This document shows positions 1 through 15,693 of a stretch of DNA of 15,693 bases, piece after piece. The position numbers were made by a program, and so were the translations under genes. Each line of letters opens with the position of its first letter. Position 1 is the first letter of the stretch. The DNA lies in the IMG/VR virus record IMGVR_UViG_2778261355_000012. One strand, given 5' to 3'. The notes under the pieces were generated by a model that did not search any database, had not been told where the DNA came from, and saw only the letters and a list, made by a program, of their open reading frames with translations. The stretch is from a virus. Taxonomy: Duplodnaviria; Heunggongvirae; Uroviricota; Caudoviricetes.

Positions 1-537
1 TTACTCGTCCAGCAGAATCACTTTGCCGATATACGGCAGATGACGGTAACGCTGTGCGTAATCAATGCCGTAACCCACCACAAACTCATCCGGGATCGAG
101 AAACCGATAAATTCTACCGGGACGTTCACTTCACGACGGGACGGTTTATCCAGCAGCGTACAAATCGCCAGCGACTTCGGTTCGCGCAGGCTTAAGATCT
201 CACGCACTTTCGACAGTGTATTCCCCGAGTCGATGATATCTTCAACAATCAGCACGTCCTTGCCACGGATATCTTCATCCAGATCTTTGAGGATTTTCAC
301 ATCACGGGTGGTGGACATGCCGCTACCGTAGCTGGAGGCGGTCATAAAGTCGACTTCATGAGATACCTGAACTTCACGGCACAGGTCCGCCATAAACATA
401 AATGAGCCACGCAGCAGACCCACCAGCACCATATCGCTGCCGCTGTCTTTGTAACGCTCAGTAATCTGACGACCCAGTTCGGCGATACGCGCTTTAATCT
501 CCGCTTCGGGGATCATTACTTCTACAATATGTTTCAT
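1..537 (-). CDS. hpt: hypoxanthine phosphoribosyltransferase
   Basis: 178-aa product [35 protein letters not shown]...[14 protein letters not shown]...[10 protein letters not shown] matches E. coli Hpt over its full length from memory; includes the PRPP-binding [13 protein letters not shown] motif; ATG at 537-535, TAA at 3-1. Confidence 0.96.
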
Positions 538-7983: not shown

Positions 7984-8010
7984 AAAAAAGACCCGGAAAA
8001 AATCCGGGCC
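7984..8010 (-). terminator. rho-independent terminator ending the replication operon
   Basis: Minus-strand hairpin CCCGGA-uuuuuu-UCCGGG followed by UCUUUUUU; sits just past the stop of the 82-aa ORF and ahead of the capsid promoter region. Confidence 0.7.
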
Positions 8011-8019
8011 TTTATCGCT

Positions 8020-8268
8020 TTATTGTTTCACTGGCTCCCGCATTCTGCGTCTTATTTTCCACAAATATTCGATCATCGCTTCCACCTGCTCACGGTTGGT
8101 TGCGAAAATTTCCCCGGTCAGTGAGCTACGCAGAAAATCATGATGATCCACAAAAAATAACGCATCGGAAGAAAGCAACCGACGATATTTTTTTGCTGTC
8201 GTGGTTTCCAGATCATCAAAACCATGAAGCTTTTTATGTTGCTGAACTTCTTCGAATGTCACTGGCAT
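8020..8268 (-). CDS. hypothetical protein (82 aa)
   Basis: Start overlaps the 3' end of the FinO-like gene by 10 nt; followed by the terminator; no motif recognised. Confidence 0.45.
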   Translation of the reverse strand: MPVTFEEVQQHKKLHGFDDLETTTAKKYRRLLSSDALFFVDHHDFLRSSLTGEIFATNREQVEAMIEYLWKIRRRMREPVKQ

Positions 8269-8789
8269 GTATCCCCCTTTGCTGCCCGGCGCTGGCGCTT
8301 GTGCTTCTCATTCAGCACCATCAGCCGTGTTTCTGCCTCCTGCTGTTCCTGTGGTGTCACTTCCCCACATGGCTGGCCTTTCAGGTCGTAACGTGCGCCA
8401 CCAGCTATCAGGGCGCGGTAATAGCGCGGAGACTGCGCATAGGATGCCAGCGTCGCACGTAATACCCCCGACCCGAATGCCAGCCCCCTGACGGCGATAT
8501 CCTGCATCAGGTCGTCGAATATCCCCACCTTAAGCGGCTTCGGTGCTTTATGGCTGAATAAGTCAGGCCACATCTCAGTGAGGCGGTTAACGCGTCGGCG
8601 GTTTTTGCGCTGCCTTTTGGTCATATGCTGCCACGGTGTCGCCCCTGTGGGCTTCTGCTGTGCGTTCTGATTGCCGGGTATCACTTTATGCGCCGATGTG
8701 GTTTTATCCTGCTCTTGCGCCGCCTGCGTCGTTTTCTGCGGCGTGCCGTAAATGCCTTTCGGCTTCCGGTTAATGGTCAGCGTTGTCAT
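8259..8789 (-). CDS. ProQ/FinO-domain RNA-binding protein
   Basis: Residues ~70-155 (WPDLFSHKAPKPLKVGIFDDLMQDIA...VLRATLASYAQSPRYYRALIAGGARYDLKGQPCGEVTPQEQ) align by eye with the E. coli ProQ N-terminal domain (FPHCF...PLKIGIFQDL...[35 protein letters not shown]); basic, low-complexity N-terminus. Confidence 0.8.
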   Translation of the reverse strand: MTTLTINRKPKGIYGTPQKTTQAAQEQDKTTSAHKVIPGNQNAQQKPTGATPWQHMTKRQRKNRRRVNRLTEMWPDLFSHKAPKPLKVGIFDDLMQDIAVRGLAFGSGVLRATLASYAQSPRYYRALIAGGARYDLKGQPCGEVTPQEQQEAETRLMVLNEKHKRQRRAAKGDTCQ

Positions 8790-8825
8790 GCCTTCCCCTG
8801 TAATTACTCTGTTCGCTGTTGTGAA

Positions 8826-9251
8826 TTAAAACGGTATGTTATCCCCGTACGGGTCATCGTGCTGGCTTGTCTGTTGTTTTGCCCTGTTCAGTGCGTCAGT
8901 GGCCTGGCCCTGTTGACCTTTTTTGCCGCCCGGTCGCGCCGTTCGCGCACTGATTACGCTGTCTGCAATAACCTGCCAGCCCCGCTGCGTTTCCCCGTTC
9001 TGGCCTGTCCACTGGCTCACCTGCATGTTACCCGCCACGCTCACCAGTTCGCCTTTGTGGTGTTTTGCCAGTGCGTCGGCCTGTCTGCCAAACGCCAGGA
9101 CAGATAACCACATCGTCGCCGTTCCGTCATCTGCCTGGCTGCACGGCAGGGGAACCGCCATACTCGCCATCGCCATTTGTGTCCCTTTGCTGGTGGTCTT
9201 TAACTGCGGGTCAGCCACCAGCCGCCCGTAAGCCGCTATCTGTGCTGTCAT
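8826..9251 (-). CDS. single-stranded DNA-binding protein (SSB)
   Basis: 141 aa with OB-fold SSB pattern (GRLVADPQL...MWLSVLAFGRQA...KGELVSVAGNMQVSQWTGQNGETQRGWQV), Gly/Gln-rich linker and acidic tail ending DNIPF (canonical DDDIPF). Confidence 0.8.
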   Translation of the reverse strand: MTAQIAAYGRLVADPQLKTTSKGTQMAMASMAVPLPCSQADDGTATMWLSVLAFGRQADALAKHHKGELVSVAGNMQVSQWTGQNGETQRGWQVIADSVISARTARPGGKKGQQGQATDALNRAKQQTSQHDDPYGDNIPF

Positions 9252-9540: not shown

Positions 9541-9770
9541 TCACCTGTTCACCTTTTGAGATTTTCCCTTTTTATTCATAATGTTAAGGGGTGAACAGTT
9601 TCACAAAAACTATTCACCAACTGTTCACCACTGTTCACCCTTAAAGCTCAATAAATAATCAAAAAGGTGAACAGTGAATAGTTTGGTGAACAGTTCACAA
9701 ATAACTGTTCACCCTATAATGTACTGATATAAAAGATATTTATCACAGGGTGAACAGTGGTGAACAGTTA
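9541..9770. repeat. iteron field: at least 9 perfect copies of TGTTCACC / GGTGAACA in both orientations plus variants, with an adjacent AT-rich tract; candidate replication origin
   Basis: Read directly: perfect octamers at ~9546, 9590, 9622, 9632, 9666, 9685, 9706, 9749, 9759; AT-rich tataatgtactgatataaaagatatttatc at ~9714-9743. The octamer is the one I recall as the phage P4 alpha-binding type I iteron. Confidence 0.8.
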
Positions 9771-9780
9771 TTCCATAAGT

Positions 9781-11595
9781 TTAATTTTTGCTGTCGTCAT
9801 TTGTGACCGATGCACATGATGGCATCCAGTCTTCTGAATCCTCTGTCAGTGTCACATTTGAACGCAAACCGTGCTTCGTTTTCCGTTTTATATACTCCCT
9901 GCCATATTCCGCCATTGCCCCCGGCATATCTTTACCGAAGCGCGTCAGTGTTACAGGTTTACCGAATCCGTGTGCCCTCATATATGCCAGATAGGCGTGA
10001 TAAAGATACCTGCGCGGACTGAACGGAATAATTTCGGCATTACCCACTAACAGACCATCACACATTACCGACGACATGAGATAGCCACAGAAGTCCACCA
10101 GCGAATCGCCCTCGCGTTTTATCACCAGAGCTTCTTCTGATTTCTGCTGCTCATACAGCAGGCGTTTAGCTTCGTCCTGGTCAGAAAAACGAGTAAGCAG
10201 ATGGCGAATCACAACCGCCAGCTCTCCTTCTATTTTTTCTGCCAGCATGGGGTCGCGCTCGTTCTCCGGTACAACCTCCGAAAAATTGAATATCACCCGA
10301 CGACGTGAGATCCCCCCGCTGCGGTCACTGAATGACATGGCGTTATTGTTCACCGCCAGCACGACCGCCTGAATGCGTGTTGAGTAGGGGGCTTTATGCT
10401 TCGGGTCGATTGCCACCTTGTCACCGCCTGTAATGGCCTTAATTCCTGCGCCATCACCAGCGTAGCGGGTCATATCCGGCATGATAATCAGCGAAAAGCC
10501 AACCACTAACGCGCGTTCCCTTGCATCTTCCAGCGCCTTCATGCTTGCCGATACTGTGTTGGCCTTACCCGCCAGCATGGTGCAAATCTCCGCCATCACG
10601 CTTTTACCACTTCCCCCTGGACCTGTTACCTCAATGAATAACTGCCAGTCGTACCGGTTCGCCAGCACCATGAATAATGCAGCCAGCACGCGATCCGTCT
10701 TGCGGTCATTCTCTGCCACCGAGCGGCGTAACCACTTCCAGAAATTCGGCGCATGTGTTGCCAGCGTTTCCCCCTCTGCTGGTGGGCTGAAAGGTAATTC
10801 ACTGGCAATTAACAACCAGTCGTTTTTGTTATGCTCCCGAAAATTACCTGTTCTGGTATCAAATACCCCGTTACTGAATCCAATCAGGTTACGGGCTGTA
10901 TTCCCCATTACAGGCAAACTTAACTTCATGGTATCGACCGCCGATTTAATGGCGTTCTGCGAATAGCTGATCTCCGCATCAATGAAAATCTGCGCCATAG
11001 CACGCTGTAACTCTTTATCCTGAATCGGCTCCCATACAACGCCGTTGTAATGGTGAACAGTGTCAGAGTCGGCATGAATCGCCAGTTCACCGCCATAATG
11101 TGCCAGGAGAACTTCGCCGCGCTGGCTTGCTCCCATCTGGTTAAGCGCCAGTGGTGCGGCGCTGTCTTCTGTTTTTTTCTTAACAGGAAGCTGAATCACC
11201 AGACCATCAGAAAGATTCTGGCGCTCACGGGCCAGATATTCGCGCCAGTTCTGCACCTCCTGGCCGTGCATACCCTCAGGATAAAAATTTGCATCCTGTA
11301 CGCCTGCCGCCGCCAGCTTCTGACCAATCGCCTTTATCATTACTGGCGCAAGATATCCGGCCCTGAATATGCGCACGGATTTTCTGCCTTCCGGCACAAT
11401 TTGCAGCTTATCCAGTTCGGATAACTGCTGCTCCCCAAGCCACACAGGAGGCTCATTATCTCCGGCCATACGCGCGTCATGTTCCTGCCATTGTTTTGCG
11501 TGTGACCAGGCATCACTACCCGCAAAAATAATGACTTCTGTTTCTTTGTGTTTTATGCCGCGTAACTGCTGTTTTACGTTCGGTGCCAGTTTCAT
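9781..11595 (-). CDS. replication initiator with primase/helicase-type NTPase domain (P4 alpha-like / D5-family)
   Basis: 604 aa; Walker A GPGGSGKS mid-protein; iteron field lies immediately 3' of the gene; start overlaps the upstream 95-aa ORF (ATGA). Confidence 0.8.
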   Translation of the reverse strand: MKLAPNVKQQLRGIKHKETEVIIFAGSDAWSHAKQWQEHDARMAGDNEPPVWLGEQQLSELDKLQIVPEGRKSVRIFRAGYLAPVMIKAIGQKLAAAGVQDANFYPEGMHGQEVQNWREYLARERQNLSDGLVIQLPVKKKTEDSAAPLALNQMGASQRGEVLLAHYGGELAIHADSDTVHHYNGVVWEPIQDKELQRAMAQIFIDAEISYSQNAIKSAVDTMKLSLPVMGNTARNLIGFSNGVFDTRTGNFREHNKNDWLLIASELPFSPPAEGETLATHAPNFWKWLRRSVAENDRKTDRVLAALFMVLANRYDWQLFIEVTGPGGSGKSVMAEICTMLAGKANTVSASMKALEDARERALVVGFSLIIMPDMTRYAGDGAGIKAITGGDKVAIDPKHKAPYSTRIQAVVLAVNNNAMSFSDRSGGISRRRVIFNFSEVVPENERDPMLAEKIEGELAVVIRHLLTRFSDQDEAKRLLYEQQKSEEALVIKREGDSLVDFCGYLMSSVMCDGLLVGNAEIIPFSPRRYLYHAYLAYMRAHGFGKPVTLTRFGKDMPGAMAEYGREYIKRKTKHGLRSNVTLTEDSEDWMPSCASVTNDDSKN

Positions 11596-11884: not shown

Positions 11885-12112
11885 TTATTCCGCGTTTATT
11901 TTTTTATCGTGAATTTCGATCGCTTTATTTAATTCGACGATTACCGTATCGAGTAATGAAATAAACGCACCAGCAAGATTAGATTCACGCTCATCTTCCG
12001 GCGCATCACTTAAACCATCAAGCCAGATAAGAAATATTTGCCTCAAACATTCACTGTTAGTCAGTGCGTTTTCTGCATGGCTCATTGATTTAAAATAACG
12101 GTCATCATGCAT
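11885..12112 (-). CDS. hypothetical protein (75 aa)
   Basis: ATG overlaps the stop of the upstream 67-aa ORF (ATGCATGA); acidic; no motif recognised. Confidence 0.45.
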   Translation of the reverse strand: MHDDRYFKSMSHAENALTNSECLRQIFLIWLDGLSDAPEDERESNLAGAFISLLDTVIVELNKAIEIHDKKINAE

Positions 12113-12308
12113 GGCGCACCCCCTGACGAATACGGGCGGCGAATACCATCACGCAGTCATCAGGAGATTGCTGGCGTGCTTCCTGTTCGCTGGTGGCCTC
12201 AATGGTAATCACGCGCGGTTGTGCCGTGCTCAGGGCGATAAAACGCCAGATGTATTTATTCAGGTTGTACGAGTCCCGCCCTTGCGGGTGTCTGGTATAA
12301 TTTCTCAT
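12105..12308 (-). CDS. hypothetical protein (67 aa), first gene of the replication-side operon
   Basis: Track ORF 12105..13013 trimmed to ATG at 12308 with GAGGT RBS 5 nt upstream; the long N-terminal extension is Ser/Cys-rich and antisense to plus-strand genes. Confidence 0.45.
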   Translation of the reverse strand: MRNYTRHPQGRDSYNLNKYIWRFIALSTAQPRVITIEATSEQEARQQSPDDCVMVFAARIRQGVRHA

Positions 12309-12389
12309 AGCTACCTCGATACTCTCGTTATCGTTGGTGGTTAGACGCCCTGCATGTGTTGCGAGCACTGCGGGGCGTTGCTCTTTTAG

Positions 12390-12435
12390 GTGTATTTCAC
12401 CTTTGCTTTTTAATTTACTCACTGGTGAAATACAC
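12390..12435. promoter_or_regulatory. perfect 12-bp inverted repeat GTGTATTTCACC-N22-GGTGAAATACAC in a divergent promoter region (candidate operator)
   Basis: Read directly; lies in the ~190-bp gap between the minus-strand 67-aa gene start and the plus-strand 59-aa gene start; TATACT -10-like hexamer downstream at ~12466. Confidence 0.5.
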
Positions 12436-12501
12436 TTCAAGCCTTTTTTTATCATTTTTTTTGCGTATACTGACATACACCAATTTTTAGGAGATCCAGA
12501 A

Positions 12502-12681
12502 ATGGCAACTGGTGCAAAGAACGCAAAATCACAAATGACAACTGTCAGAATCCCACATGAAGTAATGGATGATATTGAGCAACTTAAAGAACCTGGCGAA
12601 AGTACCGCTGGTTTTTTAGTTACTGCCGCAAAAGGCGAGATCAAACGCCGCCAGCGTCGCAAGGCCAAAGAGCAGGAGTAA
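12502..12681 (+). CDS. small putative DNA-binding protein (59 aa, possibly ribbon-helix-helix-like)
   Basis: Track ORF 12334..12681 trimmed to ATG at 12502 with AGGAG RBS ~9 nt upstream; MATGAKNAKSQMTTVRIPHEVMDDIEQLKEPGE... then a basic tail; the RHH assignment is a weak guess. Confidence 0.5.
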   Translation: MATGAKNAKSQMTTVRIPHEVMDDIEQLKEPGESTAGFLVTAAKGEIKRRQRRKAKEQE

Positions 12682-12738
12682 CCATCACCAGCGCCGTGGT
12701 GTGAGTAACTACGGCGCATTGCTATGCAGGACAACACA

Positions 12739-12912
12739 ATGACCGATAAAGAATTGACCAAAACATTATCACCGGCACGGAAAAGACGGCGCAGAAAGAT
12801 AGAGCATGAATCAGAAAGATTCGCGCCATGTGCTTTTGCCCTTGAGCAATTCCTTAAAGAGCACAGGAAAAAGCTCTCGTTGCAAACCTTGGAACGAACC
12901 AAATCTGACTGA
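12739..12912 (+). CDS. hypothetical basic protein (57 aa; alternative start 12724)
   Basis: Follows the 59-aa gene on the same strand and is followed by a strong terminator; arginine-rich (ARKRRRRK). Confidence 0.4.
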   Translation: MTDKELTKTLSPARKRRRRKIEHESERFAPCAFALEQFLKEHRKKLSLQTLERTKSD

Positions 12913-12976
12913 TCACATTGCCCACCAGCCAGCAAATCACTATGATGTTCGGGCTTATGTTTAGTGTTTTCCCATT

Positions 12977-13008
12977 GGCGACCGCCCCCGGTCGCCTTTG
13001 TTTTATGT
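12977..13008 (+). terminator. rho-independent terminator after the plus-strand cassette
   Basis: GGCGACCG-cccc-CGGTCGCC perfect 8-bp GC stem followed by TTTGTTTT on the plus strand; prevents read-through antisense into alpA. Confidence 0.7.
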
Positions 13009-13022
13009 GTCATAACTCCCCC

Positions 13023-14374: not shown

Positions 14375-14472
14375 TGCGCTACCCTCAACGCCCTAAATAC
14401 TTTACGAGCCAGGCGGGTAGGGTTTCCCGCTTTTCGGTTGGCCGACCTATGCCCGTAATATCAGTTTAACCT

Positions 14473-15693
14473 CTATATCGATACAGGTAACAGCACCACA
14501 TTTTGATGATTACCCGCCAGAAGTTCTAATCGGCCATACCACTTATTCAACGCATCCATTTTCTCAGGTAAGTACAGACTACGGTTATAAATAGCCATCA
14601 CCCCCGGCAATGCATGACCAAGTAAAAGCTCTACAATATGTGGCGCAATACCCATATTATTTAAACCTGTAGAAAATGTTCTGCGCAAATCGTGAAGCGT
14701 CCATGGCTCATTATGATGAAAATCTTTGTATAGCCTACGCCCTTTAAGCGAAGCAGCCTGGCGGGAACGTTCTTCACCCAGTACAATTCCTGTTTTTCCC
14801 GTTTCCTTTTTTAGATCCTCAATCCATGGGCGAATGCCCTCTGGAATTGGACGAACTATTTTTTCACGAGTTTTGCTGTGTTCTTTAGGAACCGTCCAAA
14901 TCCATGACTGAAAATCCCATTCACTCCACCGGGATAATCTTACTTCCATTGTTCGCGCCCCAAACAGCACAAGCAACTTAAGCAGACGAAGATAATAAAA
15001 TTGCTGTTCATCGCTATAAGTACACCGCCATACATCAGCTAACTCACTATCTGACAGCACCCTATCACGCTGCCCCGATGGTTGCCCTACATCCTGGATT
15101 GTCATAAAAGCCAGGGCATCACATGAGGCATAACGGCGAACCTTGCAGAATCTTAAGGCCTGTTTACAAATCTGGAACATTCGCCCGGCAGTGATTGGCC
15201 TGGACTGGTTAATTTCATCAAAACATGCCACCCAGTGACGCGTTTCACACCGGGATAACGGATAGTGGCCAAGACGCGGATAAATATGCTTACGTAATTG
15301 CGCCCGCACCAGTTCCTCGTCACTACGTTTTTTTCTTGCGTAATGAATTAGCCAATATTCAAGGGCATCATGGACAGTTACGGGGTTAAGGTTTTCTTCT
15401 GCGCTAAGTTCTAATTCAAGTCGTGGATTCAGCCCGTCCGCATACCATTTTCGGCATAGTTCCCTCTTCTCCCTAGCCATTTTCAACGACATGTCAGGGT
15501 AACGCCCAAGAACAATGCGCTCTAACTTGCTCCCACGCCCACCAAGACGATAAGAGAAAACCCAACTAATGCATCCCATCATGGATACTTTGATGCTTAA
15601 TCCTTCACCATCCGCAATGGTAATTACTGAATCCCGCTTTACGCCGAGAAGCGATCTTAATTTTTTATCACTCAGTTTGTTTGTGCCAGCCAC
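14473..15693 (-). CDS. int: tyrosine integrase, P4-type (5' end at window edge)
   Basis: N-terminal P4-integrase-type arm-binding pattern (KLSDKKLRSLL...DGEGLSIKV...WVFSYRLGG...LGRYPDMSLKMAREKR); C-terminal catalytic signature HDLRRTF...LLGH...AIYNRSLY. First codon is GTG exactly at the edge, so it is either a GTG start or slightly truncated. Confidence 0.92.
   Translation of the reverse strand: MAGTNKLSDKKLRSLLGVKRDSVITIADGEGLSIKVSMMGCISWVFSYRLGGRGSKLERIVLGRYPDMSLKMAREKRELCRKWYADGLNPRLELELSAEENLNPVTVHDALEYWLIHYARKKRSDEELVRAQLRKHIYPRLGHYPLSRCETRHWVACFDEINQSRPITAGRMFQICKQALRFCKVRRYASCDALAFMTIQDVGQPSGQRDRVLSDSELADVWRCTYSDEQQFYYLRLLKLLVLFGARTMEVRLSRWSEWDFQSWIWTVPKEHSKTREKIVRPIPEGIRPWIEDLKKETGKTGIVLGEERSRQAASLKGRRLYKDFHHNEPWTLHDLRRTFSTGLNNMGIAPHIVELLLGHALPGVMAIYNRSLYLPEKMDALNKWYGRLELLAGNHQNVVLLPVSI

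Follow-up and report, generated by a model that had tools for sequence, protein, structure and literature searches.

Work on FinO-domain proteins has dealt with chromosomal members (ProQ, RocC and NMB1681) and plasmid members (FinO, FopA and PcnR). The domain binds a terminator hairpin together with its 3'-OH tail through a Tyr/Arg pocket, and in the RocC–RocR structure a Gly/Tyr/Arg pocket holds the 3'-terminal nucleotide (PMC9674577). Plasmid FinO-like proteins with N-terminal extensions are reported to be highly selective, recognizing one RNA or a few each (PMC9977716, PMC7491321). Among phage satellites, ProQ/FinO-like genes have been mentioned as annotations in the E. cloacae PICI AVS0889 and in a Vibrio episomal cf-PISP (PMC13612085, PMC13230959), and no functional study of a phage-satellite FinO-domain protein was found in the literature searched. 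The prototype of the capsid-forming PICIs (cf-PICIs), EcCIEDL933, undergoes induction and replication, builds capsids and is transferred (10.1101/2022.09.08.507074). The gene analysed here is an already-annotated member of the known FinO-domain family (the same CDS carries the RefSeq name 'ProQ/FINO family protein', WP_001735910.1); satellite members of that family had been mentioned only in passing before.

The window, by which we mean the whole 15,693-nt stretch of DNA that was analysed, matches the chromosome of E. coli ATCC 43886 at 100% identity, and the island lies there between hpt and gcd. The element is a cf-PICI, a phage satellite of E. coli: within ~15 kb it has int, alpA and a primase gene as well as its own capsid, protease, portal, connector, HNH, TerS and TerL genes, and neither the ORF list nor Pfam revealed tail or lysis genes in the window. 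The genes between hpt and the left-hand end of the island at int are on the minus strand, int included and two small plus-strand genes excepted. Their order is int, orf309, alpA, the Icd-like gene, orf75, DUF4222, the P4/D5-type primase-helicase, orf81, SSB, the FinO-domain ORF and orf82, and after orf82 come capsid, protease, portal, connector, HNH, TerS, TerL and orf96. This order matches that of EcCIEDL933 (10.1101/2022.09.08.507074). The coordinates of individual features are collected in Table 1. The AT-rich segment between the primase gene and orf81, which holds the iteron array, is the probable satellite origin, judging from its repeats. The YlcI gene and the 62-aa ORF (region 12309-13022) diverge from icd and converge on alpA. 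A 302-aa minus-strand ORF at 12105-13013 is probably spurious outside its Icd-like part (12105-12308).

Table 1. Positions of features in the window, with strand and the basis of each assignment or a remark.
Feature	Position	Strand	Basis or remark
hpt	1-537		
Intrinsic terminator closing the operon	7984..8013	-	AAAGGCCCGGA-UUUUU-UCCGGGUCUUU, then U run; 6 nt past the orf82 stop
orf82 (phrog_1957, no Pfam match)	8020..8268	-	Start overlaps FinO-type stop by 10 nt (ATGCCAGTGA)
FinO-type CDS, 176 aa, ATG start	8259..8789	-	Stop codon included; ORF list; RefSeq WP_001735910.1
Basic stretch KRQRKNRRR, FinO domain and C-terminal helix, codons 56-172	8274..8624	-	AlphaFold2, Foldseek, alignment
Low-complexity Q/T/K-rich linker, codons 15-55	8625..8747	-	pLDDT <50 for residues 10-50; composition
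Conserved N-terminal motif MTxLTINRKPKGIY, codons 1-14	8748..8789	-	Alignments A1 and A2
FinO cassette, 549 nt, relative to FinO-less cf-PICIs	8278..8826	-	Alignment with L097, L136 and L112
SSB gene, directly upstream of the FinO-type gene	8826..9251	-	Pfam PF00436, TIGR00621
Iteron array, GGTGAACAG, at least 9 copies, both orientations	9545..9769	none	Repeat families D1 and D2; 24 inverted pairs
P4/D5-type primase-helicase (replication gene)	9781..11595	-	Pfam D5_N, DUF5906, Pox_D5; TIGR01613
YlcI/YnfO (DUF3950)	12502-12681	+	Within otherwise minus-strand island
62-aa ORF (orf62p)	12724-12912	+	Forms mini-operon 12502-12912 with YlcI
Terminator ending the YlcI/orf62p mini-operon	12977-12996	+	GGCGACCG-CCCC-CGGTCGCC, then U run; strong
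int-alpA RNA motif, between int and orf309	14391-14457	-	Rfam RF02996, 55.2 bits vs gathering score 35.8
Integrase	14473-15693	-	

The ORF downstream of ssb was examined for the FinO domain that the original prediction had assigned to it, and the assignment was borne out. An HMM search gave 84.9 bits and E=4.6e-24 for Pfam PF04352, whose cut-off is 27 bits, residues 64-168 corresponding to profile positions 5-108 of 109. Searches with phmmer against PDB sequences returned ProQ-NTD (7.8e-12) and FinO (6.8e-11), and also NMB1681, Lpp1663 and RocC, with a bias of 0.0. An AlphaFold2 model built from the single sequence was too poor for use (pLDDT 52); the model built on a 62-homologue alignment had pLDDT values of 83-92 across residues 60-170. 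A Foldseek comparison of this structure with the PDB put FinO (1DVO) at the top, with an rmsd of 1.9 A over 102 columns. NMB1681 and RocC came next, and the top 27 matches were all FinO-domain structures. Because the PDB sequences were matched without compositional bias and the model recovered the FinO fold, the PF04352 match is not one of compositional similarity only, the outcome that the prediction had itself named as its refutation. Sequence and modelled fold thus provide a secure domain call for a genuine FinO/ProQ-family protein, which is predicted to bind RNA. Across 60 unique homologous CDSs, the whole gene had a median dN/dS of ~0.25; the domain alone gave 0.22 and residues 2-57 gave 0.26. 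Low values in both domain and extension indicate purifying selection and hence a gene that is functional throughout; a ratio of ~0.25 rules out a pseudogene or remnant.

The protein is neither ProQ nor FinO proper. It scored 59.2 bits with the NCBIfam ProQ equivalog model (NF003434, cut-off 127) and 66.6 bits with the NCBIfam FinO model (NF010317, cut-off 136). It has no linker and no C-terminal Tudor-like domain of the kind found in ProQ, stopping ~30 residues past the domain, and its gene lies in a PICI context rather than at the distal end of an F-type tra operon, with all 1565 E. coli matches being chromosomal.

Residues implicated in RNA recognition were compared with those of characterized family members. 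AlphaFold2 predicted helices at residues 58-73, 90-101, 107-118, 121-129 and 146-172 and a beta-hairpin at 132-143. K87, G89, R111, Y123, R133 and D135 align with ProQ K35, G37, R58, Y70, R80 and D82, respectively. The residues of the 3'-nucleotide pocket, G89, Y123 and R133 (equivalent to G37, Y70 and R80 in ProQ and to G52, Y87 and R97 in RocC), are kept in at least 90% of the 62 homologues. R111, which matches ProQ R58 and RocC R75, is present as well, with His or Cys in its place in a few homologues. The N-cap position, on the other hand, is Gly106 with no flanking lysines, where ProQ (S53), FinO (SHKKLR) and RocC (S70) have serine; hairpin recognition may therefore differ from that of the three known proteins.

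The N-terminal 55 residues are of low complexity (36/55 are Q/T/N/S/P/G/A), basic (pI 10.1) and predicted to be disordered, and are directly followed by a stretch with 8 K/R within 14 residues. ProQ has no such extension, in line with the original description of this region as unlike ProQ. The first residues of the extension are highly conserved in the family: T5, I6 and R8 were invariant, and L4 and K9 nearly so, in an alignment of 17 sequences (A1), and L4, T5, I6 and K9 each reached at least 90% in an alignment of 62 sequences (A2). The motif TL[TS][IL][KN]RKP is present in distant relatives and in FinO, and some distant relatives start MTEQKRPTLTIKRKPK, bridging to the MTEQKRPVLTLKRK of FinO. 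A motif HMM built without FinO scored the FinO N-terminus at 11.8 bits, a level reached by 1/5000 shuffles. Leaving out the bridging sequences lowered the score to 5.0 bits (73/4730 shuffles as high), and an HMM built from the close family only gave 1.2 bits, no better than shuffles. These comparisons support, with moderate strength, homology between the extension and its N-terminal counterpart in FinO, and on its sequence we classify it as FinO-like and not as a new feature. The strand-exchange activity of FinO resides in its N-terminal region.

Homologues were sought in genomes, virus collections and protein libraries. The protein family comprised 298 matches of 160-180 aa; Escherichia was the source of nearly all of them, and Shigella, Salmonella and Citrobacter of some. 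At the DNA level, homologues occupied 1565 places, up to nine per genome, spread over 1095 of the 5426 complete genomes of E. coli (~20%). FinO-domain proteins of plasmids reached at most ~43% identity, over the domain only. A library of 1.8 billion cluster representatives yielded 2117 matches at E<=1e-3 and just 9 at E<=1e-30, which indicates a narrow clade of a large family. A peptide-pattern scan of genome contigs found 2 loci only, the patterns being narrow.

All 80 homologue-encoding loci in IMG/VR have the backbone int-(alpA)-icd-DUF4222-primase-[orf81]-[SSB]-FinO; these loci are redundant, and counts of them, here and below, describe patterns and not independent events. The FinO-type gene follows either ssb or, directly, the primase gene and origin, and it is paired with at least two unrelated types of primase. 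The most abundant variant, P0043, is in a PICI context too. In the P0043 loci (L008 7587-8003; L165-L168 7479-7895) the gene has a 20-nt overlap with that for a 138-aa protein of no known family, and further downstream are three large proteins of ~840, 600-690 and 820-920 aa without Pfam matches, which could be defence cargo. A second context was also observed, in which solitary, oppositely oriented homologues of 64-67% identity lie in large non-satellite islands (L002 8976-9452, L003 8967-9491). Their neighbours are Rpn-family, inovirus-Gp2-family and zinc-ribbon genes, with an Afa/Dr adhesin operon in L003.

Comparison with related satellites showed that the FinO-type gene is an optional cargo cassette. 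It was present in 11/72 DUF4222-seeded PICI loci long enough to be judged, and 85% of related PICI loci are without it. Alignment of the window with FinO-less cf-PICIs breaks exactly at 8826/8827 and at 8277-8286, that is, at the edges of the gene, so that the cassette consists of the gene without extra non-coding DNA. The slot is empty in the near-identical cf-PICIs L097 and L136, where ~20 nt separate ssb from orf82; int, orf309 and alpA of L097 are 99-100% identical to those of the window. The slot is filled by a PerC-family gene of ~97 aa (PF06069) in L098, L112 and others, and EcCIEDL933 has the order SSB-PerC-orf82-capsid, again with no FinO-type gene. Among the sampled cf-PICIs, this slot (window 8269-8825) held FinO only in 17, PerC only in 16, neither in 2 and both in 0. 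Classical PICIs with FinO, in contrast, had PerC directly downstream in 62/63 cases. A limit on the genome size that the small capsid can hold may explain the exclusivity of FinO and PerC in cf-PICIs. Since many near-identical satellites and the functional EcCIEDL933 lack the FinO-type gene, it is not part of core replication control. RNA-mediated control of replication, immunity or helper interference, which the original prediction had suggested for it, is thus not supported as a core function, given its presence in only 11 of the 72 loci, its absence from EcCIEDL933 and the lack of a co-inherited RNA (see below).

The junctions of the cassette (8790-8826 and 8269-8285, minus strand) share Shine-Dalgarno-like sequences, ACAGGGGAAGGC-ATG and AAAGGGGGATAC-ATG, and FinO-less L097 has AACAGGGGAGATAC-ATG. 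The similarity of the sequences at both junctions suggests that gene-sized modules are swapped by recombination at ribosome-binding sites. A satellite ssb was missing from 40/80 FinO-carrying loci and present in 58/61 FinO-less loci; ssb and the FinO-type gene therefore assort independently.

The prediction had also placed the gene in a replication operon with SSB and the replication gene, downstream of the origin. Its position held good: the gene comes after the iteron origin in an operon-like array and shares its strand with the primase and SSB genes. Co-transcription is an interpretation of the spacing. The spacer from the ssb stop to the FinO-type start is 36 nt long and carries the Shine-Dalgarno-like GGGGAAGG, the far end of the gene overlaps orf82 by 10 nt, no minus-strand promoter-like or terminator-like site was predicted between ssb, the FinO-type gene and orf82, and a terminator follows orf82; from these features we infer that co-transcription of the FinO-type gene with the operon is plausible. 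An internal promoter may be present and may allow expression without induction. All 21 FinO-carrying loci with orf82 next downstream show this 10-nt overlap, and in 54 loci the PerC start lies 4 nt before the end of the FinO-type gene, the usual ATGA overlap. The operon terminator has an RNA fold z of -3.5, with 0/200 shuffles folding as well. It follows orf82 in 21/21 FinO-carrying orf82 loci, with paired stem variants (CCCGG/CCGGG, CCTGG/CCAGG), and follows PerC in 34/57 PerC loci; it is not limited to FinO-carrying elements. orf82 itself is located just upstream of the capsid gene in most sampled cf-PICI loci, a few being without a detectable copy. It might correspond to 'hypothetical gene 1792', mutation of which impairs the transfer of EcCIEDL933.

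Every characterized FinO-like protein encoded by a mobile element regulates that element via a cognate antisense RNA (PMC9977716, PMC7491321). On the model behind the original proposal, the window protein would be the partner of a satellite-encoded antisense RNA controlling replication or immunity, comparable with FopA–Inc/repZ, with FinO–FinP/traJ and with copy-number control by PcnR, and the location of its gene, within the replication module and adjoining the origin, agrees with such a role. We judge this model unlikely, however, since no antisense or structured RNA co-inherited with the FinO-type gene was found. Rfam was run at a permissive E-value on the window as a whole and also on two sub-regions, and the int-alpA RNA (RF02996) was the only real family; matches to microRNA families were spurious and came from the iteron array. 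The int-alpA RNA was rejected as a partner on a crude pattern, its core being found in four FinO-less loci and in 0 FinO-carrying loci. Three of these four loci share the integrase type of the window, two of them at 99% identity, and one match has a degenerate core. The backbone does contain an opposite-strand mini-operon, that of YlcI and orf62p, which is convergent with alpA and ends in a strong terminator, the best opposite-strand terminator in the window; but both the mini-operon and its terminator are equally common in FinO-less loci, and the terminator was discarded as the mark of a FinO-specific antisense RNA.

Association tests gave the same outcome. Coverage of the window by FinO-carrying and by FinO-less loci differed over the FinO-type gene only, and a 60-mer association scan of 80 FinO-carrying versus 61 FinO-less loci detected only a linked PerC allele. 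Nor did the CDS appear to contain an embedded antisense RNA, for the synonymous-site profile is nearly flat (0.08-0.27) with no marked valley; an antisense 'terminator' at 8597-8614 was dismissed as a weak stem of 5-6 pairs in a stretch of above-average synonymous variation. The 5' UTR of the capsid operon, considered as a structured target, was not unusually structured (z = -1.05). The pairing of the gene with unrelated primases and its absence from most related PICI loci likewise weigh against dedicated control by an antisense partner. A cognate antisense RNA from the shared PICI backbone is possible.

The best explanation, which we hold with moderate confidence, is that the gene encodes an accessory FinO-type RNA chaperone, expressed from the operon, with a modulatory action on backbone RNA or on host, helper or plasmid RNA. 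This reading is favoured because the cassette is dispensable, is exchangeable with or coupled to PerC, and has no RNA gene with it. Its mechanism is drawn by analogy from the family. In the predicted architecture the TLxI(K/N)RKP motif comes first, a basic, disordered linker leads from it to a basic helix, and the FinO domain is followed by a C-terminal helix, with no ProQ-type C-terminal domain. The slot is variable and lies at the 3' end of the replication operon in enterobacterial PICI satellites, after ssb or the origin. The gene would be transcribed with the operon on satellite induction, with probable translational coupling to the next gene, which is orf82 in cf-PICIs and PerC in classical PICIs. 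The pocket of G89, Y123 and R133, together with R111, would then bind the hairpin and 3' U-tail of one or a few transcripts, and the N-terminal extension may make binding specific and supply chaperone activity, in keeping with proposals for FinO and further plasmid FinO-like proteins. Candidate ligands are a shared PICI backbone transcript, for example the terminator of its own operon, and an RNA that comes from the host, from the helper phage or from a plasmid in the same cell. These are the most likely ligands because the satellite cycle runs without the gene and no RNA gene travels with it; the effect of the protein would then be modulatory and not essential.

A different possibility is that the protein is trans-acting cargo directed against the host or a competitor, comparable with PerC, with helper-phage antisense RNAs, the FinP-type RNAs of F-like plasmids or the ligands of host ProQ as its targets. 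The alternation of the gene with PerC in one cf-PICI slot, their coupling in nearly all classical PICIs that have FinO, the solitary homologues in large non-satellite islands and the occurrence of homologues in ~20% of complete E. coli genomes, with up to nine copies in one genome, are all consistent with such cargo. PADLOC, however, gave no match to known defence systems and so no link to them, and identity to FinO is only ~35% over the domain, which makes a trans-acting role of this kind doubtful. We consider it quite unlikely that satellites carry the chaperone as exchangeable cargo, with PerC as its alternative or partner, and that on induction it captures terminator RNAs of helper phage, F-like plasmid or host (e.g. 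lysis-lysogeny or conjugation antisense RNAs) and thereby exerts RNA-level interference. It is very improbable that the protein is a replication accessory factor acting with SSB on ssDNA or RNA-primer/DNA hybrids at the origin, and not on regulatory RNA: although the window, like half of the FinO-carrying loci, has the gene directly after ssb and near the origin, the other half have no satellite ssb while nearly all FinO-less loci do, and the FinO pocket recognizes the terminal ribose 3'-OH of RNA (PMC9674577).

The role of the accessory chaperone is directly testable, given natural near-isogenic cf-PICIs with and without the cassette and the EcCIEDL933 system. If its ligands are helper-phage, plasmid or host RNAs, it adds an RNA-chaperone layer to the conflict between satellite, helper and host; should its action be confined to tuning the operon that encodes it, it would extend the FinO theme in an ordinary way.

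Among known systems, the FinO-domain genes of AVS0889 and the cf-PISP belong to PICI-type satellites of other species, a likeness that comes from annotation alone. The chromosomal proteins RocC, Lpp1663 and NMB1681 have the same fold (target-normalized TM-score at most 0.84, for RocC), but identity is 24-34% and domain context, hosts and partners differ. ProQ, the chromosomal global RNA-binding protein of E. coli and Salmonella, shares the FinO domain and its key residues with the window protein, which differs in having an N-terminal extension, in lacking the linker and Tudor-like C-terminal domain, and in being the product of an accessory rather than a core gene. FopA (pCol1B9) and PcnR, FinO-domain replication repressors of mobile elements, resemble it by description; FopA likewise has an N-terminal extension with two positive stretches and no ProQ C-terminal domain (PMC7491321). 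Replication of the satellite, on the other hand, proceeds via a primase-helicase and iterons and not via an antisense-controlled rep gene, and no cognate antisense RNA was found. The best structural match is FinO of F-like plasmids (1DVO), with 35% identity across the domain. The window gene is not beside traX and has no FinP/traJ pair, the N-cap reads GSGVLR here and SHKKLR in FinO, and the region before the domain aligns ~10 residues shorter (the domain alignment starts at V67 here and at V77 in FinO). Through intermediate sequences, FinO and the window protein share an N-terminal TLxxKRK motif (TLxIKRK), and both are mobile-element-encoded proteins of ~180 aa that lack a C-terminal domain and have a disordered, basic extension at the N-terminus.
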